A DNA stretch of 64,000 nt from Omnitrophica bacterium GWA2_41_15 (GCA_919902675.1 CAKKRH010000032.1:1270-65269); one strand, 5' to 3'; shown: positions 3,813-56,226, counted from the first letter of the stretch. Numbers and translations are program-made. The notes: generated by a model not told the origin, from the sequence alone.

Positions 3813-4609
3813 CGCGCCGAAACTCCTTTTTTCCTTAAATAGCTTTTAACTTCTTTAATCGTCAGATCCTGATAGTGAAACAAAGACGCGGCCAGAGCCG
3901 CGTCCGCCATGCCTTCAGTCAAAACAGCGTAAAAATCTTCTTTTTTTCCGGCTCCTCCTGAAGCAATCACCGGAATACGGACCGCTCCGGTTATGGCTTT
4001 GGTCAAATCCAGGTCATAACCTTTCTTGGTGCCGTCAAAATCCATACTGGTTAACAGAATTTCACCCGCCCCGAGTTTTTCCGCTTTTTTCGCCCATTCA
4101 AACGCGTCTAACCCCGCGGCTGTTCTGCCGCCGTTGATATATACAGTCCACGGTCCACAGTCCACAGTCGACAGTCCTTTTCTGCGGACTATGGACCGTG
4201 GACTGTGGGCTAATTTCGCGTCAATTGCCACCACAATGCACTGGCTTCCGAACTTTAATGAGGCATCCCTAATCAGTTTAGGGTTTTTTACCGCGGCGGT
4301 ATTTATGGAAACCTTATCCGCTCCGGCATTAAGCAAATCCCTTATATCCCTCAAGCTGCTTATGCCGCCTCCCACCGTAAGTGGCATAAAGACATTTTCG
4401 GCAGTGCGCCTGACCACGTCTAAGATGATCTTTCTTTTTTCGGAACTGGCGGTAATATCCAGAAAAACCAGCTCATCCGCCCCTTCTTTCTCATATCTTT
4501 TGGCCGTCTCAACAGGATCACCGGCGTCTTTCAAGTTTAGAAAATTAACCCCTTTGACCACCCTGGCGTCCTTAACATCAAGGCAGGGGATAATTCTTTT
4601 GGTAAGCAT
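3809..4609 (-). CDS. hisF: Imidazole glycerol phosphate synthase cyclase subunit
   Basis: 266 aa: [18 protein letters not shown]...[13 protein letters not shown]...ASGGAG. It overlaps hisI by 4 nt. Confidence 0.92.
4144..4205. repeat. Imperfect inverted repeat of GTCCACA-type words inside the hisF CDS (in frame)
   Basis: cagtccacggtccacagtcc (4144-4163) pairs 19/20 with ggactatggaccgtggactg (4186-4205). It encodes ..[23 protein letters not shown].. in the variable segment after AIDAK. Confidence 0.8.
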
Positions 4610-4612
4610 TCC

Positions 4613-5167
4613 TTATTTTACCTTACGGTGCAGATAGATCCTTAGCTTCTCCCAAGTCGCCTTATCGATCTTGCCGGTAATTTCCAGGCCATTATCCTTC
4701 TGGAAATCACGGATTGCTTTTCTACTGCGGCTGCCCATCAGCCCATCAATGGCTCCGGGGTCATATCCTGCGTTCTGCAGGGCAATCTGAATCTGCTTAA
4801 TTGAGGAATTGGGAGTAGGCTTGTATTTTCCGGTTAAGACATCCAGGCGCTCAGCCAATTTTGCCCTCTCCTTGGCCTCTTTATCCAAAGCCTCCTGCAA
4901 GGAAGAGACCAAGCGCTCTTTTTCCTTAAGTTCAGCCTGGATTTTTTCATCAACTGATTTATCATTGAGTGACCTTTCTAAAGACGCGATCTGTTCATCT
5001 TTTTGCTTGGCCTGGGTAGAAAGTGAACTCATCTGCCGGCGTAAATCCTGAATTTCCTCATCCAGCTCTCTGCGAGAAACCGTAGCACAGCCAGCCAGCA
5101 ACAAAACCGCTTGAATTAATAACATAGTTTTATTTATCCGCATGTTTTTTTTCCTCCTTATTTTCAA
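4613..5167 (-). CDS. Coiled-coil lipoprotein with C-terminal peptidoglycan-binding (PG_binding_1-like) domain
   Basis: Lipobox LLLAGC after a signal peptide, then a charged coiled-coil middle. The C-terminus reads IQIALQNAGYDPGAIDGLMGSRSRKAIRDFQKDNGLEITGKIDKATWEKL. The gene is embedded between hisA and hisF, overlapping hisA by 4 nt. Confidence 0.7.
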   Translation of the reverse strand: MKIRRKKNMRINKTMLLIQAVLLLAGCATVSRRELDEEIQDLRRQMSSLSTQAKQKDEQIASLERSLNDKSVDEKIQAELKEKERLVSSLQEALDKEAKERAKLAERLDVLTGKYKPTPNSSIKQIQIALQNAGYDPGAIDGLMGSRSRKAIRDFQKDNGLEITGKIDKATWEKLRIYLHRKVK

Positions 5168-5886
5168 TTCTTAGTTAAAGCTACTGCCTCTTTCAGAGAA
5201 AATCTTTTTTCATACAAGGCCTTTCCCACAATTACCCCTTTAAGATTCAGACAATCCAGGCTTGCTAATTTTTTTATATCAGCCAGGGAAGAAACCCCGC
5301 CGGAGATAATAAAATCTATTCCTGACGAGCGCAAAACATTTTTTATCGCCGGGAGATTTATTCCGGAAAGGGTCCCGTCGCGGCTGATATCGGTATAGAT
5401 TACGGTCTTTAAATTAAGATTTTCCAGGCTTTTCAAATAATTTTTAAGGCTTATTTTAGCGGTCTTCCTCCAGCCGCGTAAACCCAGCTTCTGGCCAGAG
5501 GCATCCAAGCCTAAGGCGATTTTTTGGCCGAATTCCTCTATTGCCCGGCCTAAAAAATCAATGTCCTCAATCGCCCTGGTGCCCAGGATTACCCTCTTGA
5601 CACCACAATCAATTACTTTCTGAATGGCTGATAAATCCCTTATCCCGCCGCCTGCCTCAGCCGGGATATTGATTTTCTTTATAATCTTTTTGATGACCTT
5701 AAGGTTTTTCTGCCGGCCACAAATAGCTCCGTCTAAATCCACCAGATGCAAAAATTTCGCCCCCTGATCCTGCCAATCCAAGGCCACGCTCACCGGGTCA
5801 GAAGAATAAACCTTCTTATTTAGCCTGCCTTTGGTGTATCTGACCACCCGGCCTTCTTTTAAGTCAATCGCGGGAATGATAATCAT
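5164..5886 (-). CDS. hisA: ProFAR isomerase
   Basis: 240 aa: MIIIPAIDLKEGRVVR...HLVDLDGA...GGGIR...ISGGVSS. Confidence 0.9.
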   Translation of the reverse strand: MIIIPAIDLKEGRVVRYTKGRLNKKVYSSDPVSVALDWQDQGAKFLHLVDLDGAICGRQKNLKVIKKIIKKINIPAEAGGGIRDLSAIQKVIDCGVKRVILGTRAIEDIDFLGRAIEEFGQKIALGLDASGQKLGLRGWRKTAKISLKNYLKSLENLNLKTVIYTDISRDGTLSGINLPAIKNVLRSSGIDFIISGGVSSLADIKKLASLDCLNLKGVIVGKALYEKRFSLKEAVALTKN

Positions 5887-5916
5887 GCCACGTTAGGTTA
5901 GACATATTTTAAGAAA

Positions 5917-5962
5917 CTCTAAACACTAAACCATAAATCCTAAACAAACCCAAAAGCTAAAA
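5917..5962. repeat. CTCTAAACACTAAAC...AAACCCAAAA word element (copy 1)
   Basis: ctctaaacactaaac at 5917-5931 is identical to 8471-8485, and both are followed by ..taaacaaacccaaaa. Confidence 0.75.
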
Positions 5963-13515: not shown

Positions 13516-14568
13516 CTATTCTTTAAGCTTAGCCGTAGCCTGCTTACGAACTTTATCTTCTAATTCATTAAGCATCTTAGGGCTGTTTTTGAGAAACTGG
13601 ATTGCCTGGTCTCTTCCCTGGCCTATTTTCTCGTTGTTGTAAGCAAACCAACTTCCGGACTTTTGCAAAATACCCATTTCCGAAGCGGTATCCACGATAC
13701 TTCCCGCCCGGGAAATACCTTCGGCAAAGAGAATTTCAAACTCCGCCTCCCTGAAAGGAGCGGCTACTTTATTTTTTACCACCTTCGCCTTAACCCGGTT
13801 ACCAATAATCGTTTCCCCGGATTTAATCTGTTCTTTCCTTCTTAAATCCAGGCGGACCGAAGAATAAAATTTCAAGGCCCTTCCTCCGGGAGTAGTTTCA
13901 GGATTACCAAACATAACCCCGATCTTTTCGCGCAGCTGATTAATAAAAATAATACAGGTCTTGGATTTACTGATAGCGCCGGTAAGCTTTCTTAAGGCCT
14001 GAGACATCAGCCTGGCCTGCAGGCCCATATGACTGTCTCCCATTTCCCCTTCAATCTCCGCCCGGGGGGTAAGGGCGGCTACTGAATCTATCACCACCAC
14101 ATCCACGGCATTGGAGCGCACCAGGGTCTCCGCGATCTCTAAAGCCTGTTCGCCGGTATCCGGTTGAGAGATAAGCAGCTCATCCAGGTTAACCCCAACC
14201 TTTTTGGCATAGGTAGAATCAAAGGCATGCTCGGCATCAATAAAAGCCGCCACCCCCTTAGTCTTCTGGACCTGGGCAATCACGCTTAAGGTAAGGGTGG
14301 TTTTACCGGATGATTCCGGGCCAAAAATCTCAACCACCCTTCCCCGGGGAAGCCCGCCTATACCCAAAGCCAAATCTAAAGAAAGCGCGCCTGTGGGGAT
14401 TGCCGCGACATCCACCTTTATATCGCTGGAAAGCTTCATAATTGAGCCCTTGCCAAACTGCTTTTCTATATGGGCCACGGCCAATTCTAGGGCCTTTTGA
14501 CGGTTAAGATCATCTTCTTTTTTAACTATTGGTGCTGTCTCCGCGACAGCCTTTTTATCCTGCGCCAT
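13516..14568 (-). CDS. recA: Recombinase RecA
   Basis: 350 aa: [37 protein letters not shown]. Confidence 0.97.
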
Positions 14569-14883: not shown

Positions 14884-16053
14884 ATGGATACGGACAAACC
14901 CAGGGATACCCAAGAGGAATTACAAAAGGTGCGCGGAGAGCTTTCCTTGCTTTATGAAATCTCCAATGCTATGCGCACTACCCTGAAATTAGATGAAATC
15001 CTCTATATTATCCTTACCGCGGTAACTGCCCATGTGGGCTTGGGCTTTAACCGGGCAATGCTTTTTTTAGTAAACGAAAAAGACGGTGTTTTAGAGGGAA
15101 AAATGGGTATCGGCCCGGATAGCGGCGAAGAGGCTAATCGCATCTGGACCTACCTAGAAAAGGAGAAAACAAATCTTGATAATTTAATCAGCAACTATAA
15201 AGTTTCGGGACATCTCGCTCACAGCCAATTTGACCAGATTGTGAAAGGCATCCGGCTTCCACTCAAAGAAGAAGAGGGCGGCATACTGGCAATGACCCTG
15301 CTTGACGGGATGCCCCTGCATATCACCCAGGAAACCATCCACACCCGTAAGCAAGACACCTTAATTAACATCCTCCGTCCAGAGGAATTCGTAACCGTTC
15401 CCCTCAAAGCCAAAGACAAGATTATCGGGGTCCTTTTCGCGGATAACCCCTATACCCATAAACCAATCACTAAAGACAATATCCGCATCCTGACTATGTT
15501 TGCCAACCAGGCCGGCCTGGCCATTGAAAATTCCAAGCTCTACGAACAAACCCTGATCAAAAGCCATACCGACTCCCTCACCTCGCTCTGGAATCACGGA
15601 TATTTTCAGTCCCGCCTGCAGGAAGAGATAAGCCTGGCTCAGAAAAATAAACAAAATTTAAGTATTATAATGGCTGATTTGGATAATTTTAAGGTCTACA
15701 ACGATACCTTGGGACACCAGGAAGGAGATCAGATACTTATTCAGATAGCCAGAATATTGAATGGCTCAGCGAGAAAACAAGATACGATTTACCGTTACGG
15801 AGGAGAAGAATTCGCGGTACTGCTACTTCAGACCACTAAACAGGAAGCCAGCGTTATTGCCGAGAAAATAAGGATATCTGTAGAGCAAAGCGATTTCCGC
15901 AGGCAAGAAATATTTCCCAACCGAAAACTTACCGTAAGCTTAGGAGTAGCCGCCTGCCCTGGAGACGGCGCGAGCAAAGATTCGCTTCTTGAATACGCCG
16001 ATAAAGCCCTCTACAGCGCTAAACACCAAGGCAAAAACCGCGTCTGCGGTTAA
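14884..16053 (+). CDS. GAF domain-containing diguanylate cyclase
   Basis: 389 aa with an N-terminal GAF-like region and a C-terminal GGDEF domain. It has an RKQD I-site five residues before the RYGGEEF active site. One of only two plus-strand genes. Confidence 0.88.
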   Translation: MDTDKPRDTQEELQKVRGELSLLYEISNAMRTTLKLDEILYIILTAVTAHVGLGFNRAMLFLVNEKDGVLEGKMGIGPDSGEEANRIWTYLEKEKTNLDNLISNYKVSGHLAHSQFDQIVKGIRLPLKEEEGGILAMTLLDGMPLHITQETIHTRKQDTLINILRPEEFVTVPLKAKDKIIGVLFADNPYTHKPITKDNIRILTMFANQAGLAIENSKLYEQTLIKSHTDSLTSLWNHGYFQSRLQEEISLAQKNKQNLSIIMADLDNFKVYNDTLGHQEGDQILIQIARILNGSARKQDTIYRYGGEEFAVLLLQTTKQEASVIAEKIRISVEQSDFRRQEIFPNRKLTVSLGVAACPGDGASKDSLLEYADKALYSAKHQGKNRVCG

Positions 16054-16103
16054 GACACAAAAAGCTCTTTTACCGCGTTATAGATTATTTTCTCGGGGAT
16101 ATT
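16050..16103. repeat. 54-bp direct repeat, left copy (duplicate of the aroB 3' end)
   Basis: ttaagacacaaaaagctcttttaccgcgttatagattattttctcggggatatt is identical to 18254-18307. It contains the GGDEF gene stop codon (16051-16053). Confidence 0.95.
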
Positions 16104-16228
16104 ATCAGCACAACCCAACACCCTTGTATCTGCGTATTATAAGCACTTGCCTTCGTCACCCCTGCGCTTCGCCCTGCCCGCCTACGGTGAGGTCTCGCCT
16201 TCGGCGGACGGGTTAACATAATACGACC

Positions 16229-16513
16229 TTAAACAAATTCAACCTTTAAATGCTTATTCAACGCCCGCGCCAGCTTTATTAATGTCCCTAAAGAATAACT
16301 TCTGTTGTGAATATCCTCTAACCGGGACACTGTTTGTTGGGTAGTGTGTAAGCGCTTAGCTAATTCCCGTTGAGTTAATCCTTCCTTTTGTCTAATCTTA
16401 GCGGTTTGAATAGCTAAAGAAGCGTAAGTCTCTTCTTCATCAAACGCTTTTTTAAATTCTGGGTTTTTCAGATCTTCCCTTAGCTTGTCTCTAAATTTTC
16501 TTAGGCCTCTCAT
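16229..16513 (-). CDS. XRE-family HTH antitoxin (HigA-like)
   Basis: 94 aa with HTH segment GLTQRELAKRLHTTQQTVSRLE. It overlaps the upstream toxin gene by 4 nt. Paralog at 63326-63619. Confidence 0.8.
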   Translation of the reverse strand: MRGLRKFRDKLREDLKNPEFKKAFDEEETYASLAIQTAKIRQKEGLTQRELAKRLHTTQQTVSRLEDIHNRSYSLGTLIKLARALNKHLKVEFV

Positions 16514-16869
16514 AACTCAATTTCACCCCCTTTATATCTTTGAAAAAAATCTCCCATTATTCGTTCTGCCCTTTCAATCTCTCCCGCGGGAACCTTATCG
16601 GTTTTTTTTAAAAAGCCGTGTGTGAGAATAATCTTCTTACCAAAGAAAAAATATAAAAACCGATAATGGTTTGAGCCAAAAACAACTCTAAGCTCCCGGA
16701 TCTTCCCCCTAACAACATCCGCGAATGGCCTGGTCAAATTCGGCCCTTCTTCCTCGAGTTTTTCTATCCACTTCTCTATCTTGGCGCGTATCTTAATGGG
16801 TAAATTATCTAAAAACTCGTCCGCGGGACAATTCCCTCTGCTATCTTCATAAGACAATACTTCATACAT
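16510..16869 (-). CDS. Gp49/HigB-like toxin (RelE/ParE superfamily)
   Basis: 119 aa: ...IRELRVVFGSNHYRFLYFFFGKKIILTHGFLKKTDKVPAGEIERA. The toxin-first gene order is typical of HigBA. Paralog at 63626-63988. Confidence 0.75.
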   Translation of the reverse strand: MYEVLSYEDSRGNCPADEFLDNLPIKIRAKIEKWIEKLEEEGPNLTRPFADVVRGKIRELRVVFGSNHYRFLYFFFGKKIILTHGFLKKTDKVPAGEIERAERIMGDFFQRYKGGEIEL

Positions 16870-16888
16870 ATATTAGTCCCTCATTTAT

Positions 16889-16917
16889 AATTTACACTAT
16901 TTTTAATGTATTGTCAA
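16889..16917 (-). promoter_or_regulatory. Predicted TA promoter (TTGACA-17 nt-TAAATT)
   Basis: On the minus strand, TTGACA (16917-16912) is followed by a 17-nt spacer and TAAATT (16894-16889). A GAGGGA RBS then precedes the toxin ATG at 16869. Confidence 0.6.
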
Positions 16918-17016
16918 GAAAATCTTTGAAATTATCTCGTTTTGTAATAAGCATGAATAGCGGCTTGGAGGAAATTATTTTGCTCTAAAGCATAAAGATT
17001 CTGCGTAATTTGGGCA

Positions 17017-17057
17017 TAAAAAATACTGCGTAGTACGCAATACATACTACGCAGTAT
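17017..17057 (-). terminator. Rho-independent terminator downstream of the lipoprotein pseudogene
   Basis: On the minus strand, a 13-bp stem atactgcgtagta/tactacgcagtat with a 9-nt loop is followed by TTTTTT. Coordinates are good to about +/-2 nt. Confidence 0.7.
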
Positions 17058-17174
17058 AGCACAATTAAATTTAGCTACAATATCCTTTGCTTATTTTACG
17101 CACTCCCGATACACACCCCTGTCGCTGTCAAAAAATAGAATCCTCCCCTTTTTTCTATCGGACTCCGGCAACTA

Positions 17175-17673
17175 TTAATTAATTTTAACTAAATATTTCC
17201 TAAGATGTTCGGGAACTTGACCCAATGTCATAATTTTCAATGTCGGTTGCTCTGTATTCAGGGCTAATTTTTGGGAAAGATTCGCGGTAACATCAGGTTG
17301 TAATTTATACATTTTACCTGATATTGGGTCAACGATTAGCAAACCAATCAGACCACCAAAAAGAATGTTACCAAAATACCAGCCGCTTAAAGTTGCTTTA
17401 ACTGTAGTATATTGTTCAGTATATCCAGGTTTTGAGAAAGTGATACTGTAGGTCTTTTGCGTGAAAATAAGACTGGCCGGCGGCCAACGAGACAGTAGTT
17501 GGCGTTGTTCCTGAAAACATCTTTTTCCCGCTTTCATCTACAATAACAATATTTGCTCCATCCGGATTACTATTAATCGTCAGCGGAAACACATCTTTAC
17601 CTACGATCGTGGCACATCCAGTCAAAAATAACACAGGCAACACTAAAGCTGGGATCATCAATTTTACTCTCAT
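17175..17673 (-). pseudogene. PEGA-like lipoprotein gene split by a frameshift
   Basis: ORF 17416-17673 has a signal peptide with lipobox LTGC and a PEGA-like PLTINSNPDGANIVIVDESGKKMFSGTTPTTVSL. ORF 17175-17537 continues KTYSITFSKPGYTEQYTTVKATLSGWYFGNILFGGLIGLLIVDP in another frame. The junction lies near 17452-17475. Confidence 0.65.
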
Positions 17674-17880
17674 TTTTCATATCCCCCTTTTCCTTTAAAT
17701 TAGAATTTTACTGCTAATATCTTTTTCGTCTCTTCCTCCCCTGGAGTTACAATTTTTGTTCGTCTTTGTTTTTAATTAACTACCCACCGCCTCCTTTCTC
17801 TATTTAAGAGACGTTTAGTTCTTATTAATTCGGTAATTTTTAACCTAAGGCTACAATCATTTGTTAACGCAAACAATGTA

Positions 17881-17900
17881 ACACCGTATATATGCGGTGT
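17881..17900. promoter_or_regulatory. Inverted repeat ACACCG-N8-CGGTGT upstream of the XRE regulator gene
   Basis: acaccgtatatatgcggtgt lies about 30 nt upstream of the 17928 start. It is a candidate operator in the divergent promoter region. Confidence 0.35.
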
Positions 17901-17927
17901 CAAGAGAAATAAAGATATGGGACAATA

Positions 17928-18155
17928 TTGCCTGTTATGAGTAAAAATATTAGGTTTGAACTTGGACTAAAGATAAGACAACTAAGGAAGAAATATAACT
18001 ACACGCAGGAAAAACTATCTGAATTAGCCGAAGTAGATTATAAACATATCCAATTATTAGAAAGCAGAAAACCTCCCGCTATAAAGATTGACACCTTAGA
18101 GAAAATAGCCAAAGCCTTTAATATATCTGCCTCTAAGCTTCTGGACTTCAGTTGA
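17928..18155 (+). CDS. XRE-family HTH transcriptional regulator
   Basis: 75 aa: YTQEKLSELAEVDYKHIQLLE. The start is TTG at 17928 or ATG at 17937. Confidence 0.75.
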   Translation: MPVMSKNIRFELGLKIRQLRKKYNYTQEKLSELAEVDYKHIQLLESRKPPAIKIDTLEKIAKAFNISASKLLDFS

Positions 18156-18253
18156 TTGGCTTAAATACCTTTTTGGTTAACGCATACCATCCAAGATATT
18201 ATTTCTATGCTTGAAATAGAGAACAAATAGAAATGCTGTATCTATCTTTTCAT

Positions 18254-18307
18254 TTAAGACACAAAAAGCTCTTTTACCGCGTTATAGATTATTTTCTCGG
18301 GGATATT
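18254..18307. repeat. 54-bp direct repeat, right copy (authentic aroB 3' end)
   Basis: Identical to 16050-16103. It encodes the last 17 codons plus the stop of aroB. Confidence 0.95.
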
Positions 18308-19345
18308 TTTAGAGATAACCGCCTTGCCTATTCCTTTAAGCAGAACAAAACGGTTTAATCTGCCGATAAACTTTTTATCCAGCCTGTAGGCCCGCAACAC
18401 ATCTTCTTCCCTGATTCCGCTTACCTCAAGGGGAAGCCCCAGACCGGCAACCAAAGCGGATATCCGCTGGCAAACTGACGCTGAAAGCAGGCCTAAATTC
18501 TCGCTCATTTGGGAAGCCGCCAACATGCCTAAGGCAATTGCCTCTCCGTGGTTATATCTGCTATAACCGCCTGCCGCCTCAATGGCGTGTCCGATAGTAT
18601 GTCCGAAATTTAAAATTGTCCTTAAACCCTTTTCTTCCTTTTCATCAAGCTCAACAATTTCAGCCTTGATTTTGGCGCACGCGTAGACTAAATGCTCCAG
18701 AGTCTGCCTGTCCCTGGAAAATACCGAGTGATAATTCTGCTCCAGAAAATTAAATAATCCCTCATCCTTGATTGCCGCGTACTTGATGGCCTCGGATAAA
18801 CCGGCGCGCGTCTGTCTCTTGTCTAAGGTTTCCAACACGCTTAAGTCGCAGAAAACCAGCTTGGGCTGATAAAACGTCCCGACCAGATTTTTGGCAATGC
18901 GCAAATCAATGGCCGTTTTTCCTCCAATGCTTGAGTCTATCTGGGCCAGAAGAGTGGTGGGAACCTGGACCAAGGGCACGCCGCGCTTGTATATGCTGGC
19001 AATAAAACCGGCCAAATCCCCAATCACCCCTCCCCCTAAAGCAAGAACAGTTATCTTTTTCTGTTTCGCGTAAAAAGCCAGGTTTTCGGCAATCCTTGCC
19101 GCGTTATTGATTGATTTGGCCTTTTCGCTGTCTATGGTGAGATAAAATTTGGTCGAAAATCCTCCTTGCTTAAGGCTCTGATTTAATTTTTTGGCATAGT
19201 ATTTTTGAACGCGATTATTGGTTATAATAAATATTTCCCGCGGCAGGTGTAATGACTTAAGATACCGCGGCAGAAACCTAAAAATATCATAACCGATAAC
19301 TATAGAATAGCTTTCTTTCCCCAAATTAACCGTTATCTTTTTCAT
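18254..19345 (-). CDS. aroB: 3-dehydroquinate synthase
   Basis: 363 aa: GGGVIGDLAGF, PTTLLAQIDSSIGGKT, NFGHTIGHAIE. Confidence 0.92.
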   Translation of the reverse strand: MKKITVNLGKESYSIVIGYDIFRFLPRYLKSLHLPREIFIITNNRVQKYYAKKLNQSLKQGGFSTKFYLTIDSEKAKSINNAARIAENLAFYAKQKKITVLALGGGVIGDLAGFIASIYKRGVPLVQVPTTLLAQIDSSIGGKTAIDLRIAKNLVGTFYQPKLVFCDLSVLETLDKRQTRAGLSEAIKYAAIKDEGLFNFLEQNYHSVFSRDRQTLEHLVYACAKIKAEIVELDEKEEKGLRTILNFGHTIGHAIEAAGGYSRYNHGEAIALGMLAASQMSENLGLLSASVCQRISALVAGLGLPLEVSGIREEDVLRAYRLDKKFIGRLNRFVLLKGIGKAVISKNIPEKIIYNAVKELFVS

Positions 19346-19417: not shown

Positions 19418-20020
19418 TTAAGGAAGATTTATAAAATTAAGAATTATCTTAACTATAGGATAAATCGCGCGATCAAAGAAACCGAGATATAAAAGCACGA
19501 ATAAAATTATAAAACCGTGGCGCTCAATAGAGGCATATTTTCCGGCAACACTTGCCGGAAGCAGGCTGATTACTACGCGTGAACCGTCTAATGGCGGAAT
19601 AGGCGTAAGGTTAAATACTGCCAGGACCAGGTTCACTACTATTGCCTGTTTAAGCAAATATAGTAAAATTATAGGCAGGCTGATACTTTTTATTACCAGG
19701 CTCAGAATAAGAGCTATCGCTATGTTGGATAATGGGCCGGCCAGGCCCACCCAAAGAATATCTCTCTTAGGATTTCTTAGGCCCCAGTAATTTATCGGCA
19801 CCGGCTTGGCCCAGCCAAATACTACTGGCGATTTAGAAATAGTAAGAAGTATAGGCAAAAGCAGTGTCCCGAAAGGGTCTATATGGGCAAGAGGGTTTAA
19901 GGTGAGACGGCCGGCGTATTTAGCGGTTTTATCCCCCAGCCAAAAAGCTACCAGGCCGTGCGCGAACTCATGGATGACTACCGCGGAAAAAAAAACCGCC
20001 ATGGATAAAATAAAGGCCAC
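19418..20020 (-). CDS. Site-2 protease family (M50) membrane metalloprotease
   Basis: 200 aa, polytopic, with HEFAHG zinc motif and NLTPIPPLDG. Confidence 0.8.
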   Translation of the reverse strand: MAFILSMAVFFSAVVIHEFAHGLVAFWLGDKTAKYAGRLTLNPLAHIDPFGTLLLPILLTISKSPVVFGWAKPVPINYWGLRNPKRDILWVGLAGPLSNIAIALILSLVIKSISLPIILLYLLKQAIVVNLVLAVFNLTPIPPLDGSRVVISLLPASVAGKYASIERHGFIILFVLLYLGFFDRAIYPIVKIILNFINLP

Positions 20021-20226
20021 AATTGCTCTCTTTTCTTAGCGCAGCACAAAAACCAAATAACCAATTTCTAATAATCAAATAATAACCAATCACCAATTAT
20101 CAAACGTTCGGTTATTGATAATTCGGCCGCGTTCAAACCCCGCCCTTTAGAGCGGGGAAAAGTTACGCCGCTCTTTTGTTTATTTTGGTTATTGGTTATT
20201 AAATAGCTACCGCTTTTTAGTGGTAG
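20021..20226. repeat. Intergenic long hairpin built from AATAACC/GGTTATT words with inner GC hairpin
   Basis: The left side reads caaataaccaat...aataaccaatcaccaatt and the right side reads ttggttattggttatt. There is an inner ccccgc/gcgggg hairpin. The stem aatagctacc/ggtagctatt overlaps the stop of the next gene. Confidence 0.7.
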
Positions 20227-21302: not shown

Positions 21303-21460
21303 CCCGGAATTTGCAATAGTAATGGCATTCGCCGCCAAATAAGGGCGCATCTTCGTCAGAAAAAAGCGCTTACATACTAAAAGTATGCGCGCACTTTTTT
21401 CTGCCAAATCTGCATCCTTCTTTGGCGTCTCGGTGCCGCATTCCTATTGCAAAATCCGGG
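21303..21460. repeat. 158-bp hairpin element, copy 1
   Basis: About 98% identical to 33687-33844. The arms cccggaatttgcaatag... and ...ctattgcaaaatccggg fold into a long imperfect stem-loop around ttacatactaaaagtatg. Confidence 0.9.
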
Positions 21461-21513
21461 ATTAATCTGTAATTTTAGTTTTTGATATTTAATTTATTAT
21501 TATACCTCCAAAC

Positions 21514-24173: not shown

Positions 24174-24328
24174 AATAACCAATAACCAAACATTTAGTAC
24201 TTGGTTATTGGTTATTATTTGGTTATTGGAAATTGGAAATTGGTGATTGGTTATTGGTTATTGGTTATTGGTTATTGGTTATTGGTTATTGGTTATTATT
24301 TGGTTATTGGAAATTGGTGATTGGTGAT
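24174..24328. repeat. 16-bp hairpin plus about 19-unit heptamer array (TGGTTAT/TGGAAAT/TGGTGAT)
   Basis: aataaccaataaccaa (24174-24189) pairs with ttggttattggttatt (24201-24216). The tandem 7-mers run 24202-24328, with seven perfect TGGTTAT units at 24248-24296. Confidence 0.9.
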
Positions 24329-24339
24329 TGTAATTCATT

Positions 24340-31959: not shown

Positions 31960-32072
31960 TTTTTAATTACTCCTTTTTAAATTTATTTAGTCTATGAAAT
32001 AGCTTGTGCTGCTCAAACCTAACTCAATAAACTCAATGAACTCTATAAACTCAATAAACTCTATAGACTGAG
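31960..32072. repeat. Intergenic array of ACTCAATAA/ACTCTATAA 9-mers
   Basis: ctcaataaactcaatgaactctataaactcaataaactctatagac. The same word family occurs in 35736-35813. Confidence 0.7.
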
Positions 32073-32672
32073 TTATCTCCCGTAACCGTAAAACGGGATT
32101 GCCGGCTCCTTAGGCTCGGAATCGCTTTTCTTCTTTTCTTCCCCAGAAACAATCTTAGCCACGTGTATCTTTACCACAATCGGCTCGTCAATTCCCCTCA
32201 GGATTTCGCGGATTTTGTTTTTGACCAATTCCTGCAGACGCTCGGTAAGCTCAGGAATGCTGGTTTCCGAACGCAGGTCAAGCCGAAGGTTAACCGTAAA
32301 GCCTTTTTTACCTACCACCACATCCGGCCTTAAACTTTTAACCTCGGGGACCTGTAAAGCTATTCTCTTGATTAAATCTTCAAGGGCGGCCAAAGCAATG
32401 CTCACCTCGCCGCTAGGAGTAGTAAAAGCGATATTTTTTTCTCTCTGCATCTTACCGATGACGCTCTGGGTAAAAGAAACGCTGATTAGAATTATCAAAG
32501 CGCTGATTAAGCTTAAAATCAAAGCCGAATTGGGATTTCTGCTGATTTCAGTAAAGATATTAAAAACCATAAGCGGAGTAACAATATTAAAAGCCAGGCC
32601 AAGCAAGCCTAAGGCAAAGAATATAAAAAAAACCATGTTAAATACAAGTCCAAATAAAGTAAATGTCCTCAT
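32073..32672 (-). CDS. Membrane protein, possibly AmaP-like anchor for Asp23
   Basis: 199 aa with two or three N-terminal TM segments and a soluble C-terminal domain. It lies in the same gene string as an Asp23-family gene. The name is an inference only. Confidence 0.35.
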   Translation of the reverse strand: MRTFTLFGLVFNMVFFIFFALGLLGLAFNIVTPLMVFNIFTEISRNPNSALILSLISALIILISVSFTQSVIGKMQREKNIAFTTPSGEVSIALAALEDLIKRIALQVPEVKSLRPDVVVGKKGFTVNLRLDLRSETSIPELTERLQELVKNKIREILRGIDEPIVVKIHVAKIVSGEEKKKSDSEPKEPAIPFYGYGR

Positions 32673-33686: not shown

Positions 33687-33844
33687 CCCGGAATTTGCAA
33701 TAGTAATGGCATTCGCCGCCAAATAAGGGCGCATCTTCGTCAGAAAAAAGCGCTTACATACTAAAAGTATGCGCGCACTTTTTTCTGCCAAATCTACACC
33801 CTTCTTTGGCGTCTCGGTGCCGCATTCCTATTGCAAACTCCGGG
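33687..33844. repeat. 158-bp hairpin element, copy 2
   Basis: It differs from 21303-21460 at about 3 positions and abuts the accC stop codon (33845-33847). Confidence 0.9.
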
Positions 33845-35203
33845 TTAAACCTTCGCGCCCTCAACCTTAAAGGTATCATTTATAAAATTGGTGGAAAACT
33901 CACCTTTAACAAAGAAAGGATTCTTCAAGACCTCCCGGTGAAAATCTATGGTAGTCTTTATCGGCTCAATAATAAATTCATCCAGGGCCCGGCGCATAAT
34001 CTGGATAGCTTCCTTTCTGTCTTTTCCCCGGACAATCAGCTTGGCCACCAGGGAATCATAATACTGGCTTATGGTGTACCCGGAATACACATGGCTGTCT
34101 ACCCTCACGCCCGGACCACCCGGAATGTTCAACATCTCTATCTTTCCCGGTGAAGGCATGAAATTGTTCTGATAATCCTCGGCATTAATGCGGCATTCTA
34201 TGGAAGAACCGTTCAGTCTGATATCATCCTGCTGAAGTTTTAACTTCTCGCCCCTGGCGATTTTGATCTGCTCTTTAACTATGTCTATCCCGGTAACCAT
34301 CTCGGTAACCGGATGCTCAACCTGAATCCTGGTATTCATTTCCATAAAATAGAAATTTTTCTTATCATCAAGCAAGAACTCAATAGTTCCGGCGCTCACA
34401 TATTTTACCTCTTTAGCCGCCCGTATCGCCGTTTCACCGAGGCGTTTACGCAATTTACTGTCCACAGCCGGCGAAGGAGATTCCTCTAAGAGCTTTTGAT
34501 GGCGCCTCTGGATTGAACAATCCCTTTCCCCTAAATGAAGAATCCGGCCGTATTTATCGCTCAGAATCTGGATCTCTATATGCCGCGGCCTCTCAATATA
34601 TTTCTCAATATACACATTGGAATTGCCGAAATTCGCCTCGGCCTCGGCCTGGGCGGTCATTAACCCTGAAGCCAAACTGATGTCGTTATGGCAGACCCGC
34701 ATACCTTTTCCGCCGCCTCCTGAGGCAGCCTTAATGATAACCGGATAGCTTATGCGCTTGGCTACTTTTATCGCTTCATCCTTGTCCTTTATGGCGGATA
34801 GGCTTCCGGGAACTATGGGTATGCCGCATTTACGCATGGTTTCGCGGGCATGCATCTTATCGCCCATAAGGCGGATATTTTCCGGGGTCGGCCCGATAAA
34901 GGTTATCCGGCAAGATTCGCAGATTTCGGCAAAATGGGGATTCTCAGACAAAAAACCGTAACCCGGATGTATGGCATCCACGTCGGTTATCTCGGCGGCT
35001 GAAATGATGGCGGGAATATTAAGATAGCTGTTGGCTGAGACTGCCGGCCCGATGCACACCGCTTCATCAGCCATGCGCACATGCAAAGAATCCCGATCGG
35101 CCTGAGAATACACGGCGACAGTGCGTATACCCAGCTCTTTACAGGCCCGGATAACACGCAAAGCAATCTCTCCGCGGTTGGCTATAAGTATTTTGGAAAA
35201 CAA
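33845..35203 (-). CDS. accC: Biotin carboxylase
   Basis: 452 aa: [20 protein letters not shown]...ATP-grasp...[14 protein letters not shown]. Confidence 0.95.
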
Positions 35204-35735: not shown

Positions 35736-35813
35736 CCCGCACCTTGATTAGTTCGTTGAGTCTTTTGAGTTTAAGAACTCAATAAACTCAAGCAACTCAA
35801 CAAACTCTATAAA
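35736..35813. repeat. Intergenic hairpin of ACTCAA words
   Basis: gttgagtcttttgagttt ... aaactcaagcaactcaac. Confidence 0.7.
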
Positions 35814-36377
35814 CTAATTAACCCGCTCCACATAGGCGGCGGTCCTGGTATCCACCTTAATTTTATCCCCGATATTGATAAATAAAGGAACTAAAATCGT
35901 GGCACCGGTTTCAACCTTTGCCGGCTTGTTCCCGCCTTTAGCCGTATCCCCTTTTATTCCGGGCTCGGTTTCCACGATTGCCAGCTCAATAAAATTAGGC
36001 ATTACAATATTTAAAACCTGATTCTTGTAAAAGAATCCTAATACCTCCAGATTATCCTTAAGAAACCTGGAATTCTCTCCCAGGACATCGAATGAGATTG
36101 CCAACTGGTCATAATTCTCCTGGTCCATAAAATGATACATCTCGCCTGAGGCATAAAGATACTGCAGTTTTCTCTGCTCCACAAAAGCTTCTTCTACCGT
36201 ATCCTGGCCCCTGAAGGTGCGCTCCAGCAAGCCTCCGGTGCGCATATTCTTTAGCCGGGTGCGCACAAAAGCCGAGCCCTTGGCCGGCTTGACATGCTCG
36301 GTCTCCGTGATCTGAAAAACCTGGCCGTCCATAAGAATAGTTACCCCAACCTTAAATTGATTTATCGAGAACGCCAC
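35814..36377 (-). CDS. efp: Elongation factor P
   Basis: 187 aa: ...[19 protein letters not shown]... Confidence 0.93.
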
Positions 36378-39941: not shown

Positions 39942-40026
39942 TTATCTCATCTCCTTTTGCCTAATCATATCACCTATGATTAGAACTGTCAAACACCTTT
40001 TTTAAACCGCAAAGGCACAAAAATGA

Positions 40027-40135
40027 TTTAAACCGCTAAAACGCAAAATGGTGCTTAATGAACCCAATTAATCAAAAAAACAAAAACTGAAAAACGAAAA
40101 AAGCACTTTTTTTTGCTTTTGAAGTTTTTCAGTTT
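40027..40135. repeat. About 105-bp A-rich repeat element, copy 1
   Basis: tttaaaccgctaaaacgcaaaatggtgcttaatgaac..attaatcaaaaaaacaaaaactgaaaaac...ttttgcttttgaagtttttcagttt is about 75-80% identical by eye to 56124-56226. It contains a hairpin aaaaactgaaaaac/gtttttcagttt. Confidence 0.75.
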
Positions 40136-50555: not shown

Positions 50556-53500
50556 TTATTTATCCTCCCCTTCCTCTTCCACTACCTCCTGAGCAGAAAC
50601 CTTAAACCTGCGCAAAGCGGTGCGCAATTGCTCGGCTAAGCCGGACAAGTTTTGCGCGGATGAGGTCATCTGCTGCATCGCTTGAGTCTGCTGTTGAATG
50701 GAAGTAGACATCTCGGATGAGCCTGTAGCTGCCTGCTCAGCAGTCAAAGCGATTTCCTCAATAGTCTTGGCTACCTGTTGCGCGCCTCCTGCCTGCGCGG
50801 TAGTGGCAGCGGAAACTTCCTGGGCTTTAGAAGTAATTTCCTGAGTGCCTACGCCAATCTGGCCTAAGATAGCCAGCGCCTGATTAACGATATCAATACT
50901 CTCGGAAACCTGCTGGGTTCCGGCAGTCATACCCGTAACCACCTCAGCGGTAGAATCAGTTATCGTGCTCACCATACCTTCAATTTGCACCGCGGCTTTT
51001 TTGGTCCCTTCAGCTAATTTTCTGATTTCATCAGCAACTACGGCAAAACCCCGGCCTGCCTCTCCGGCATGGGCGGCTTCAATAGCGGCGTTTAAGGCCA
51101 AAAGATTAGTCTGGTCAGCAATATCTTTGGTCGTACCGACGATTACCGCGATTTCCTTGGCGCGCTTATCTAAGTCTTTAACTGTAGTAGTATTGGCTTT
51201 AACAATATCATCTATGGTCTTCAATCTTCCGGCTGCCTGCTTGCCTGATTCCGTGCCTTTCTCTGCCAGTTTGGCTGCTTCCTGAGTAGCCTCAGCCGCT
51301 GCCTTGGAATTAGCCGCGCCTTGTTGTATAGACTTAGAAAGCTCAGCTACTACTTTGGTAGAGGTCTCTAATTTCTTAGACTGCTCCCTTGAGCCGGCAG
51401 CTATTTCTTGGGTGGTCTTGGCAACTTGGCCTAAGGCAGTATTTACCTGCCGGGAGGCATTAGATAATTGATTGGAAGAGCTAGCAACCTTGGTAGAGCT
51501 TTCCATAGCCAAGCGAATAGTTTTTCCTAAGTCATCAAAGGATTTGTTTAAGGCATCAGTCAAGGTCTTGATATCTCCTCTTGCCTCCAAGGCATATCTT
51601 TGTGAAATGTCTCCTTTGGAGAGGGCAAGGCTAAGCCGGATTACTTCCTGAACCGGTTTGGCGATAGAATCAATCAAGGTGTTCAAGGTGTCCACGATAT
51701 TTTTCCAACTGCCGCCAACGCCTTCCACTTTTGCCCGTTCGCTAAGCTTTCCTTCCACACCAGCTACCTGAGCCACTCGGGAAACTTCATTGGCTAAGCG
51801 GTTTAAATTATCCACCATGCTATTTAGTGTATCTTTTAACTGTAGAATCTCCCCTGCTGCTTCTACAGTTATCTTTTGAGTTAAGTCTCCCATAGCAATA
51901 GCTGTGCCAACCTTAGCAATGTTTCTCACCTGAGCAGTAAGGTTAGCCGCCATAGCATTGACCCTGTCAGTAAGGTCCTTCCATGTCCCGGCTACGCCCG
52001 GCACTGCTGCCTGTCCGCCGAGTTTTCCTTCCGTGCCTACTTCTTTGGCTACGCGGGTAACTTCTGCGGCAAAAGTATTTAATGAATCCACCATAGCATT
52101 GATCGTATTCTTAAGCTCTAAGATTTCACCCATTGCCTCTACGGTAATCTTCTGAGCCAGGTCCCCCTTGGCAACTGCGGTGGTTACTAAAGCAATGTTA
52201 CGCACCTGCGAGGTAAGGTTAGCCGCCATAGCATTAACCCTGTCAGTAAGGTCCTTCCATGTCCCGGCTACGCCCGGCACTGCTGCCTGTCCGCCGAGTT
52301 TTCCTTCCGTGCCTACTTCTTTGGCTACGCGGGTAACTTCTGCGGCAAAAGTATTTAGTGAATCCACCATTTTATTGATGGTATCTTTTAAGGCTAACAT
52401 CTCTCCCTTAACCTCTACAGTGATTTTTTGCGCCAGATCTCCGTTAGCAACTGCGGTAGTAACCTGAGCAATGTTACGCACCTGAGCAGTAAGATTTCCC
52501 GCCATAGCATTGACGTTATCCGTAAGGTCTTTCCATGTCCCGCCAACACCCGGCACTGCTGCCTGTCCGCCGAGTTTTCCTTCCGTGCCTACTTCCTTGG
52601 CCACGCGGGTAACTTCTGCGGCAAAAGTATTTAGTGAATCCACCATTTTATTGATGGTATCTTTTAAGGCTAACATCTCTCCCTTAACCTCTACAGTGAT
52701 TTTTTGCGCCAGATCTCCGTTAGCAACTGCGGTAGTAACCTGAGCAATGTTACGCACCTGAGCAGTAAGATTTCCCGCCATAGCATTGACGTTATCCGTA
52801 AGGTCTTTCCATGTCCCGCCAACACCCGGCACTGCTGCCTGTCCGCCGAGTTTTCCTTCCGTGCCTACTTCCTTGGCCACGCGGGTAACTTCTGCGGCAA
52901 AAGTATTTAGTGAATCCACCATTTTATTGATGGTATCTTTTAACTGTAGCACCTCTCCGGCAGCCTCAATGGTAATCTTTTGCGCCAGGTCTCCTTTGGC
53001 AACTGCGGTGGTTACTAGAGCAATGTTACGCACCTGCGAGGTAAGGTTAGCCGCCATAGCATTGACTCTATCGGTTAAATCTTTCCATAGACCGCCAACA
53101 CCCGGCACTGTTGCCTGGCCGCCTAACTTTCCATCCGTGCCTACTTCTTTGGCTACGCGGGTAACTTCTGCGCCAAAGGTGTTAAGTGAATCTACCATTT
53201 TATTAATCGTATTCTTCAACTCCAAGATTTCACCTTTCGCCTCAACCGTAATCTTCTGCGCCATATCTCCGTTAGCAACTGCGGTAGTAACCTGAGCGAT
53301 GTTACGCACCTGACTGGTTAAGTTTCCCGCCATAGCATTGACGTTATCCGTAAGGTCTTTCCATGTCCCGCCAACACCCGGCACTGCTGCCTGTCCGCCG
53401 AGTTTTCCTTCCGTGCCTACTTCCTTGGCCACGCGGGTAACTTCTGCGGCAAATAGGTTTAAACTATCCACCATCTTATTGATGGTCTCTTTTAACTGTA

Positions 53501-54524
53501 GCACCTCTCCGGCAGCCTCGATGGTAATCTTTTGCGCCAGGTCTCCCTTGGCAACTGCGGTAGTAACTAAAGCAATGTTGCGCACCTGTGCAGTAAGGTT
53601 AGCTGCCATAGCATTAACCCGGTCAGTAAGGTCCTTCCATGTCCCGGCTACGCCCGGCACTGCTGCCTGTCCGCCGAGTTTTCCTTCCGTGCCTACTTCC
53701 TTGGCCACGCGGGTAACCTCTGCGCCAAAAAGAGTAAGATTATCTACCATTTTATTGATTGTATTCTTTAGCTCCAGAATTTCACCTTTCGCCTCAACCG
53801 TAATCTTCTGCGCCAGATCTCCGTTAGCAACTGCGGTAGTAACCTGAGCGATGTTACGTACCTGACTGGTTAAGTTTGCTGCCATAGCATTAACGTTATC
53901 TGTAAGGTCCTTCCAAAGACCGGCTACTCTTTCTACCTTTGCCTGGCCGCCTAATTTTCCTTCTGTGCCTACCTCTTTGGCAATACGGGTAACTTCTGCG
54001 CCAAAAGTATTTAGTGAATCCACCATAGCATTAATGGTATTTTTAAGTTCAAGTATCTCGCCTCTTGCTTCCACGGTAATCTTCTGAGATAAATCTCCTT
54101 TGGCTACTGCAGTAGTAACCTGAGCGATATTACGCACCTGAGCGGTAAGGTTTGAAGCCATGGCATTGACGTTGTCAGTAAGATCCTTCCATGTCCCGGC
54201 CACACCCTGAACTGCTGCCTGGCCGCCGAGTTTACCTTCCGTGCCTACTTCTTTGGCCACGCGGGTAACCTCACCGCTAAAAGCTGTTAAGAGATCAACC
54301 ATACTGTTATAGGAATCCGCTAATTCGCCAAAGATATCTTCTCTTCCTGATTTTAACTTTTTAGTGAGATCGCCTTTTCTCACAGCTTCTAAGGCCTCTA
54401 ATAAATCTCTTAACTGTTTTTCTGACCCCTCGCTAAAGCCCTCTTCTCTTTCCAATGTTGCAACATCAGCCTCTGATTCGCCAAATAAAGCCTTCTTTGC
54501 CGCTTGTCTAATTGGCTTTGCCAT
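50556..54524 (-). CDS. Soluble methyl-accepting chemotaxis protein with poly-HAMP array
   Basis: 1322 aa with no hydrophobic TM segment. It has an N-terminal HAMP, ten tandem 92-aa units and a C-terminal MCP signalling domain ([24 protein letters not shown]). Confidence 0.9.
51525..54284. repeat. Ten tandem 276-bp (92-codon) units encoding paired HAMP domains
   Basis: The unit is [84 protein letters not shown]. Units 1-9 are highly similar and unit 10 is diverged. Confidence 0.9.
52327..52943. repeat. Perfect period-276 tandem duplication (2.2 units, 100% identity)
   Basis: 52327-52667 is identical to 52603-52943 base for base. The identical shadow ORFs 52428-52634 and 52704-52910 in the track confirm the 276-nt offset. 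Confidence 0.95.
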
Positions 54525-55833: not shown

Positions 55834-56123
55834 TCTATAGAGTCTTTTTATCTAACTACCGCGCACTTGACCTTTCGACTGCCTAAAGTTAGAGTAATTA
55901 CTACAATTGTCTAATTTGTATTATTTATATCACATTTTAAATATTTGTCAAGAATATTTTCCTTTGTTGTTTTTTTAAACCGCAAAAACGTAAAATAGCC
56001 GTTAGAAGTAAATGTTCCGCGGAGACGCAGAAAAAAACTTATTGAATTTCCGCGCTTCAGCGGAGAGTATTTATCTTGATTCAACGTTTCGGCGGTTGCA
56101 AAACCGTAGAGGCGTAAAAAGAA

Positions 56124-56226
56124 TTTAAACCGCAAAAACGCAAAATGGAGCTTGATGAACGCGATTAATCAAAAAAATAAAAACCGAAAAACAAGCGTTT
56201 TATTTGCTTTTAGGTTTTTCGGTATT
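56124..56226. repeat. About 105-bp A-rich repeat element, copy 2
   Basis: tttaaaccgcaaaaacgcaaaatggagcttgatgaac..attaatcaaaaaaataaaaaccgaaaaac...tttgcttttaggtttttcggt. It aligns with 40027-40135. An extra half-site aaaccgcaaaaacgtaaaat occurs at about 55978. Confidence 0.75.

Follow-up and report, generated by a model that had tools for sequence, protein, structure and literature searches.

A Small Repeat-Flanked Accessory Islet at the 3' End of aroB in the Compact Chromosome of an Omnitrophota Bacterium

Introduction

In the genome of Omnitrophica bacterium GWA2_41_15, an Omnitrophota bacterium found in groundwater of the Hainich aquifer (well H52), the 3' end of aroB, the gene for 3-dehydroquinate synthase, is occupied by a small accessory islet. 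The islet was analyzed within a stretch of 64,000 nucleotides (GCA_919902675.1 CAKKRH010000032.1:1270-65269), hereafter called the window, in which it separates aroB from a convergent gene encoding a GAF-GGDEF diguanylate cyclase (hereafter, the GGDEF gene). It consists of an island of 2,150 bp enclosed by two 54-bp direct repeats, one of which is the coding tail of aroB itself, and carries a toxin–antitoxin (TA) pair of HigBA-like type, a lipoprotein pseudogene and a regulator of the XRE family. The islet is real, lineage-specific and non-autonomous; it is of a fairly ordinary kind and reveals no new kind of system. The presence of empty sites in close relatives allows its insertion to be described at base resolution, and several routes by which it may have entered the chromosome are weighed below.

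The Repeat and the Empty Sites

The two copies of the repeat are identical at all 54 positions (Table 1) and identity drops sharply on either side, a gapless extension to 59 nt containing two mismatches. No third copy was found in the 64-kb window at up to three mismatches, with none expected from shuffled sequences. Homology reaching past the 54 bp, or a more extensive aroB fragment that has diverged within the GC-rich spacer, was also considered and rejected on account of stop codons in the aroB frame and the lack of any aroB alignment upstream of the left copy. The first four nucleotides of the left copy, TTAA, contain the stop codon of the GGDEF gene (TAA, 16051-16053), and because one extra copy of the aroB tail is present, both flanking genes remain intact. 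The predicted empty-site (attB) junction reads ...GTCTGCGG + 54-mer + TTTAGAGATAAC..., and the predicted circle (attP) junction ...CTTTTCAT + 54-mer + ATCAGCACAAC.... With a GC content of 37.5%, against 44-48% in the flanking genes, the island DNA is compositionally foreign, as well as mosaic and non-autonomous.

Among 15 billion proteins, only three close aroB relatives were retrieved, and contigs with the predicted empty site were obtained from two of them. In L088, whose aroB protein is 93% identical, aroB and the GGDEF gene overlap by 4 nt (CTAA), and in L089 (85% identical) they are separated by 12 nt. L088 is collinear to the base with the window from which one repeat and the 2,150 bp have been removed, and the L089 alignment is likewise collinear. 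Each repeat copy matches the single copy at 50 of 54 positions in L088 and at 45 of 54 in L089. Collectively, these alignments support that the 2,150 bp and one repeat represent an insertion relative to the two closest relatives. In more distant Omnitrophota, the order SPOR-p95-M50-aroB is kept, with neither a GGDEF gene downstream nor a duplicated aroB tail. These results confirm all factual statements of a preliminary description of this DNA, prepared from the sequence without database searches: the perfect 54-bp repeats drawn from the aroB end, the GGDEF stop codon lying within the left copy, the AT-richer island and the tail-to-tail arrangement expected once one repeat and the island are removed all stand, and the single-copy empty site that it suggested seeking in relatives exists in both contigs.

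The same structure has been recovered in seven Hainich assemblies, six of them built from short reads (different samples and size fractions) and one from long reads, whose contig of 2,155,397 bp (ENA ERZ1286166, contig_28) runs collinear through both repeats. It is also found in a strain variant that is 98.8% identical. One Logan contig (L007) stops exactly at the repeat end, as expected for a repeat longer than k, and could be read as the trace of a collapsed or chimeric repeat. However, the seven assemblies, the strain variant and the 2.155-Mb contig are all collinear through both copies, and an assembly artefact can hardly be credited; the larger assembly duplication that the preliminary description had raised against its own proposal is ruled out on the same grounds. 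The density of single-nucleotide differences proved uninformative as a clock, strain differences being patchy and the adjacent GGDEF gene likewise free of differences. Among the Hainich assemblies these differences cluster in short patches, in recA (13891-13954), aroB (18785-19168) and the M50 gene (19685-19748), which suggests recombination tracts or a mixed consensus. Within the last 40 residues of the GGDEF protein (window 15931-16053), six changes are unique to the lineage of the window (e.g., V/I, A/T, G/D and Y/H), while L088, L089 and L202, a further contig described below, mutually agree at these positions.

Origin of the Islet

The explanation that we favor, tentatively, is that the islet integrated in Campbell fashion, the end of aroB acting as an att-like site. 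A circular intermediate that bore its own version of the aroB tail would have recombined reciprocally with the chromosomal one, the 54-mer thereby becoming attL and attR. A helper phage or an integrative element would have provided the recombinase in trans, unless the enzyme was subsequently lost, leaving a remnant resembling a cis-mobilizable element (CIME). By analogy, the layout is the classical one of integrase-driven elements, in which the coding tail of a housekeeping gene serves as the repeat and the insertion leaves that gene restored. The cargo also has, to judge from its relatives (see below), a phage or mobile-element pedigree, and the occupation of the same gene junction in two lineages, those of the window and of L202, hints at movement after they split. 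Elements which have kept attL and attR and lost the integrase form a documented class (PMC5704250), the CIMEs of Streptococcus being decayed remnants of integrative and conjugative or mobilizable elements that no longer have an integrase or the genes for transfer (Guedon et al., 2017, PMC5704250). In Omnitrophota, of which the preprint cited below includes 176 complete genomes, chromosomes contain variable regions rich in recombinases, restriction-modification (R-M) systems, TA systems and cell-surface genes, and these regions do hold tyrosine recombinases and integrases (preprint 10.64898/2026.06.07.730766).

The second occupied junction is found in L202, a groundwater contig of 1,011 bp from a fourth lineage, represented in SRR2177954, which holds the closest relative of the toxin (97% protein identity). 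Its TA unit shares 94.4% DNA identity with that of the window and lies 104 bp from the 3' end of the orthologous GGDEF gene, in the same convergent orientation. Between the two stands a motif resembling the end of a miniature inverted-repeat transposable element (MITE; 856-879), of which the window has two occurrences; otherwise, the sequences on either side of the TA unit bear no relation to those in the window. Such unrelated flanks do not prove an independent insertion since, in a calibration, most ordinary intergenic DNA likewise failed to align between the window and either L088 or L089. The sister TA of L202 thus occupies this GGDEF gene end in the absence of the repeat, and a single clean att integration is, as far as these contigs indicate, too simple a history for the locus.

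Divergence at third codon positions gives a relative chronology. The TA pairs of the window and L202 differ at 28 of 215 such positions (13%), aroB of the window and L088 at 74 of 364 (20%), and the GGDEF tails among the window, L088 and L202 at 9 of 41 (22%); against L089, all of these sets diverge by 37-40%. The lineages of the window, L088 and L202 are roughly equidistant. With a TA divergence of 13% against 20-22% for the host genes, the association of the TA with the GGDEF gene end is, on this measure, not recent, yet possibly postdates the separation of the host lineages (z ~2.2), which hints at a repeated, targeted occupation of the aroB/GGDEF site after that separation. The 54/54 repeat in turn looks much younger than the TA divergence, because its left copy is non-functional DNA, which decays fast in this clade, and about four differences would be expected at the age of the TA (our estimate). 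L088 departs from the 54-mer at four positions without any change to the protein tail, and at these positions both copies in the window share the synonymous states of the window lineage.

Several results weigh against an att-type integration. Pfam scans of the open reading frames (ORFs) revealed no integrase, resolvase, transposase or fragment thereof in the island, as the preliminary description had stated, nor anywhere in the 64-kb window, where the other ORFs correspond to housekeeping, chemotaxis and signaling genes, a few without match, and recA. The reconstructed attP showed neither core-type inverted repeats nor repeated arm motifs. Exact searches of viral and JGI metagenome collections gave zero matches to the 54-mer core and zero to the spacer, relatives of the island arms (spacer and right arm) were not found in any collection searched, and a comparison of the island DNA with GenBank phages and PLSDB plasmids returned nothing meaningful. 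No aroB-tail duplication was found in 33 more distant aroB loci, nor any aroB-tail copy between the TA and the GGDEF gene in L202, where attL should be. In the Hainich population, contigs with the exact aroB, GGDEF or XRE2 (islet regulator) proteins included no empty site or circle junction. An autonomous element or integrase using an aroB-tail att site was not found in the viral and JGI collections, the 33 aroB loci or the 64-kb window, the remainder of the 2.155-Mb genome lying outside this search. Furthermore, an incoming attP would need to be identical to the aroB tail of the window lineage, whose synonymous states both copies carry, and 54 bp exceeds the 30-bp limit used by Furuta et al. 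to set aside the repeats of typical site-specific recombination (PMC2853133). Hence, where the preliminary description proposed an att-type insertion whose recombinase is missing or acts in trans, the insertion of foreign, mosaic and non-autonomous DNA is upheld, while no evidence was obtained that the 54-mer is the att site of a recombinase; further copies of the 54-mer accompanied by recombinases, which it recommended looking for, did not turn up in the window or in the viral and JGI collections.

Alternatively, the insertion may itself have duplicated 54 bp of its target, the repeat then being no att site and the element having no homology to aroB. Insertions of this kind, termed "insertion with long target duplication", are documented in several phyla, where R-M genes are flanked by repeats longer than 30 bp and accompanied by no mobility genes (Nobusato et al., 2000, Gene 259:99; Furuta, Abe and Kobayashi, 2010, PMC2853133), the repeat overlapping the 3' end of a gene in two cases (PMC2853133). 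The islet shares all the structural traits of this class: its repeat is longer than 30 bp, each copy aligns to the single copy of the empty L088 genome (50/54) and is not a tRNA, and its 2,150-bp insert is shorter than 20 kb and devoid of mobility genes according to Pfam. The published Haemophilus influenzae cases likewise overlap gene 3' ends (PMC2853133), and the islet, like the R-M insertions, carries an addiction module. Since the duplication would be target-derived, this mechanism also accounts for the synonymous states common to both copies. In addition, a second case has been identified in the same TA family: in L197/L198, a TA unit (4934-5660) lies between two copies of an unrelated 34-nt repeat (33/34), which extends imperfectly to ~49 nt, and the genes annotated there over ~5 kb to each side include no recombinase. 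The same TA (94.5% DNA identity) occurs in other contexts without that repeat. Repeats accompany related TA cargo at 54 bp here and at 34 nt in this one further case, and other TA loci are without repeats. Long repeats of variable length are a hallmark of this class.

Long target duplication is the main rival of the att-type integration, the two being the live explanations, and is considered somewhat less probable. For R-M genes themselves a mechanism has only been proposed, dependent on DNA breakage by the restriction enzyme, which a toxin of the mRNA-interferase type would not provide. Random insertion leaves the sister TA at the same junction in L202 unexplained unless the TA was vertically inherited, in which case the perfect repeat looks too young (~4 differences expected, P(0) ~0.01, our estimate). 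Its left edge falls at the only extreme position that keeps aroB intact, a coincidence of ~1 in 50 if edges are random, and flanking repeats are absent at most TA loci examined. The insert also lacks the R and M genes by which Furuta et al. define their cases, its cargo being the TA, the lipoprotein pseudogene and the XRE regulator. If the islet nevertheless belongs to this class, its TA cargo would be a modest extension of it; in the literature searched, "long target duplication" co-occurs with TA systems only in reference lists. The broader proposal that a recombinase-independent route of long target duplication also moves type II TA units, for which 54 bp at aroB and 34 nt in L197 would be two independent Omnitrophota examples, is unlikely. 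If true, it would represent a general, host-repair-based entry route for addiction modules, without DNA cleavage by the cargo.

Homologous recombination might suffice without any dedicated recombinase. According to this proposal, the islet is older and gene conversion keeps the 54-bp copies identical; RecA-dependent crossovers between the repeats would delete the islet scarlessly, as in L088, the TA would counter-select such losses, and circles would re-enter conspecific empty sites by Campbell recombination. It would reconcile an oldish TA (13% third-position divergence from L202) with a perfect repeat and fits the scarless empty sites. recA lies 1.5 kb away in a window without other recombinase, and an old, unprotected copy should have decayed, given that intergenic DNA is mostly unalignable between the window and L088. 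However, in Escherichia coli 54 bp is near the lower limit of homology for efficient RecA recombination, the origin of the first duplication is left unexplained, and simple parsimony favors a gain, the outgroup L089 being empty as well. This scenario of concerted evolution is therefore considered improbable.

We regard as quite improbable a reversal of polarity, in which the islet would be ancestral to the window, L088 and L202 and have undergone precise deletion twice, once in L088 and once in L089. The presence in L202 of a sister TA beside this GGDEF gene end, the near-equal distances among the three lineages and the scarless outcome of deletion between 54-bp repeats are all compatible with it. 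Nevertheless, two independent precise losses would be needed, one of them in an outgroup with a different junction (the 12-nt spacer of L089), the TA has diverged less than the host genes (13% vs. 20-22%, z ~2.2) and the repeat is perfect.

A mobile element of another type, namely a DDE transposon or MITE, an integron cassette (cluster of attC sites lacking an integron-integrase, CALIN) or an integrative element exploiting Xer/dif (IMEX), is very improbable. The genome does contain MITE-like elements, the MITE-end motif adjoins the TA in L202, and chromosomal integrons commonly carry TA cassettes. These possibilities are already largely refuted: 1) for a DDE transposon, insertion sequence or MITE, terminal inverted repeats are lacking at 16104 and 18253, and 54 bp is far beyond transposon target duplications (2-15 bp); 2) for an integron cassette or CALIN, attC-like R''/R' core pairs occur only inside the antitoxin coding sequence and none in the non-coding arms, the spacer folding no better than its shuffles (z-scores of -0.2 and -0.6); and 3) for an IMEX, the best match to E. 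coli dif is 16/28, equaled by 8% of shuffles.

Cargo of the Islet

Three units, whose relatives are found apart from one another in other loci, make up the mosaic of the island and are parted by unique non-coding DNA (Table 1). The three genes or gene pairs named in the preliminary description were all confirmed: the HigB/Gp49-like and XRE pair with a promoter-like site of its own, the frameshifted PEGA-like lipoprotein gene with a terminator-like hairpin, and the divergent XRE regulator.

Table 1. Features of the islet and of its host flanks (positions in the window; a dot marks features without strand).
Feature	Position	Strand	Remarks
GAF-GGDEF diguanylate cyclase gene (host flank)	14884..16053	+	Pfam / NCBIfam profile matches
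Hairpin AACCGCAGACGCGGTT then TTTTGCC, inside GGDEF 3' end	16036..16051	-	
Left direct repeat (attL-like)	16050..16103	.	Non-functional aroB-tail copy; 54/54 vs. right copy
GC-rich (57%) non-coding spacer, 125 bp	16104..16228	.	Bounded by 8-bp inverted repeat CGTATTAT (16133-16140), ATAATACG (16218-16225)
XRE/HTH_3 antitoxin, HigA-like, 94 aa	16229..16513	-	Pfam PF01381 4e-11; NCBIfam antitoxin-type HTH matches below cut-off
Gp49/HigB-like toxin, RelE/ParE superfamily, 119 aa	16510..16869	-	Pfam PF05973 6e-23; PHROG 'toxin' family
TA promoter-like site TTGACA-17-TAAATT	16889..16917	-	-35 at upstream end, 16917
Intrinsic-terminator-like hairpin, 16-bp stem + T run	17057-17023	-	Downstream of lipoprotein gene
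PEGA-domain lipoprotein pseudogene, lipobox LTGC	17175..17673	-	One extra A in A run near 17458 splits 165-aa ORF
XRE2 module	17838..18157	+	Regulator gene 17928-18155, 75 aa, HTH_3/HTH_19, and conserved upstream region
Unique non-coding right arm, 98 bp, between XRE2 and right repeat	18156..18253	.	
Right direct repeat (attR-like)	18254..18307	-	Functional aroB end, codons 347-363 and stop (NIPEKIIYNAVKELFVS, then stop)
aroB, 3-dehydroquinate synthase (host flank)	18254..19345	-	TIGR01357 357 bits vs. equivalog cut-off 305

The toxin gene precedes the antitoxin gene, with an overlap of 4 nt, and homologues of the toxin are named 'type II TA system RelE/ParE family toxin' in their source records. 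A palindromic, operator-like TACAyn-AAAAATAGTGTA sits between the promoter hexamers, and promoter and operator are kept in 14 genomic contexts. The portable unit, from the -35 hexamer through the antitoxin stop codon, extends from 16223/16229 to 16917/16920 (~690 bp). Both ORFs are intact. The antitoxin differs from the L202 copy at six residues, its DNA differences being mostly at third codon positions, and since 28 of the 37 differences from L202 across the pair occupy third codon positions, the HigBA-like genes appear to be under purifying selection. Members of this subfamily are numerous among Omnitrophota (447 relatives at E<=1e-10), where they usually form solitary cassettes between housekeeping genes; no close viral relatives of the toxin were found. 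The predicted HigBA-like pair probably stabilizes the islet by addiction, penalizing its loss by repeat-to-repeat deletion, because a crossover between the two 54-bp copies would also eliminate the gene for the antitoxin.

Two loci with related TA units display further features. Downstream of another Gp49-XRE unit (L190 1097-1426; also L189, L191 and L194), a 109-aa fragment resembles only the C-terminal domain of FGGY sugar kinases. It shares 36% identity with the C-terminal end of the full-length FGGY gene next to it downstream and may be the remnant of a gene truncated when the TA was inserted. In the variable region of L197/L198, nested long direct repeats surround single genes, namely a Bro-N gene (1099-1533 and 2491-2973; 117-125 nt) and the Gp49-XRE TA unit (4534-4635 and 5838-5939, 56-102 nt; 4872-4905 and 5649-5682, 34 nt).

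Intact homologues of the lipoprotein are 165 aa long and up to 89% identical, the copy in the window differing from them by a single 1-nt insertion; this frameshift is common to all Hainich assemblies, which show the same gene calls. The gene thus appears to have been just inactivated by a single +1 frameshift. One homologue is located at the edge of an R-M island (L105).

Upstream of the XRE2 gene, the conserved palindrome ACACCGCATATATACGGTGT (17879-17902) overlaps the -35 (17903-17898) of the promoter from which the lipoprotein gene would be divergently transcribed. By binding at this palindrome, XRE2 probably represses both its own expression and that of the surface lipoprotein. Some of its relatives are divergently paired with outer-membrane or lipoprotein genes. 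The closest ones are found in phage-like contexts (terminase, tail fibers) or in a ~4-kb islet ending in a large serine recombinase, so that the cargo would have a mobile-element pedigree; no close viral relatives of XRE2 were found. The ~4-kb islet (L111 237-4311) adjoins housekeeping genes and contains genes for a beta-barrel outer-membrane protein, the XRE2 relative (76%), an ORF6N-domain protein and a large serine recombinase of 526 aa, and it may represent an autonomous relative of the XRE2 module.

A PEGA-XRE2 pair like that of the island is enclosed elsewhere by an exact 18-nt repeat, AAAACAAAATATTATTTT (L177 137-154 and 1671-1688; also L169), whose right copy falls near the start of the coding sequence of a PIN-domain gene, in its 5' part, and whose left copy reads as a truncated start, MKKNNILFC followed by a stop. 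Finally, two whole contigs (L147 and L152) with XRE2-like and tail-fiber-like genes show a period of 1,539 bp and a terminal overlap of 121 nt, as expected of a tandem repeat or a circle. Their interpretation as circular plasmids was rejected, as they correspond to tail-fiber/XRE repeat units, two of which stand in tandem in L158.

Regarding the non-coding parts, no Rfam family or tRNA was detected at the repeat or in the island, and a structured RNA in the GC-rich spacer was rejected, the fold z-scores being those quoted above; the right arm has no significant structure either. The hairpin within the 3' end of the GGDEF gene has the same sequence in L088 and in L089 (100% conservation). It would represent the ancestral terminator of aroB, which now lies downstream of the TA operon and would end the TA transcript instead of that of aroB.

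Other Repeats in the Window

Several other repeats are present in the window. A MITE-like element of 165 bp occurs in two copies, 95% identical, at 21303-21468 and 33687-33852, with terminal inverted repeats CCCGGAATTTGCAATAG and CTATTGCAAAATCCGGG. An intergenic repeat of ~95 bp (86% identical; 40004-40095 and 56101-56192) encloses a 16-kb chemotaxis and signaling cluster comprising genes for a histidine kinase-GGDEF protein, CheD, CheA, CheB, CheW, a methyl-accepting chemotaxis protein of 1322 aa and a ParA-like protein; a shorter motif, TTTAAACCGCAAAAACGCAAAA, is found at 39998, 40024, 55971 and 56121. The gene for the 1322-aa protein itself includes nine tandem 276-nt units (51699-54210; 68-77% identical), corresponding to repeated HAMP domains. 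Intergenic tandem arrays of 7-nt (TTGGTTA-type) and 9-nt (AACTCAATA-type) units occur at 20049-20206, 24194-24337, 32012-32087, 35758-35824 and 1906-1959, and similar heptad arrays (TTGTAGC-type) fill the intergenic regions of the unrelated locus L197. The strand bias of the window is extreme, 65 of ~71 candidate genes being on the minus strand; the GGDEF and XRE2 genes are among the few on the plus strand.

Implications

The islet provides a base-resolved example, complete with empty sites, of how accessory genes enter the compact chromosome of an uncultivated phylum where no intergenic space is available: convergent genes that share their stop codons both survive because 54 bp are duplicated. 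It is also a test case to separate two routes that are poorly distinguished, trans-mobilized att-flanked remnants on the one hand and insertion with long target duplication on the other. Lastly, it suggests how a TA pair can lock in DNA which would otherwise be lost by repeat-mediated deletion.

Comparison With Known Systems

The prophage e14 and phage 21 integrate within icd of E. coli and carry a substitute 3' end for this gene. As in the islet, their site lies in the coding tail of a metabolic gene and the duplicated tail keeps the gene functional. However, e14 and phage 21 each come with an integrase gene and with a substitute tail that departs from the host copy at some positions, whereas the islet has no integrase and its copies are identical.

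The islet resembles CIMEs in that the 3' end of a housekeeping gene is the source of its direct repeats, its small cargo has no recombination genes, the target is restored and mobilization is expected only with a helper. It differs from them in its long, perfect 54-bp repeat, in the absence of tandem accretion, and in that no aroB-tail integrase or autonomous relative is known or was found in the searches described above; its host is an uncultivated member of the Omnitrophota, with no conjugative element in view.

The R-M insertions with long target duplication likewise combine a repeat of more than 30 bp that is single-copy in an empty relative, an insert of less than 20 kb without mobility genes, a location at a gene 3' end and a cargo capable of post-segregational killing. 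In contrast to these, the cargo of the islet is a type II TA pair with two other modules, to which a dependence on restriction cleavage cannot apply.

The predicted TA pair follows the organization of HigBA-type type II operons, with the same toxin-first order, 4-nt overlap, HTH-XRE antitoxin and palindrome in the promoter. It departs from them in that its Omnitrophota subfamily is very abundant and behaves as a discrete unit of ~690 bp, from promoter to stop codon.

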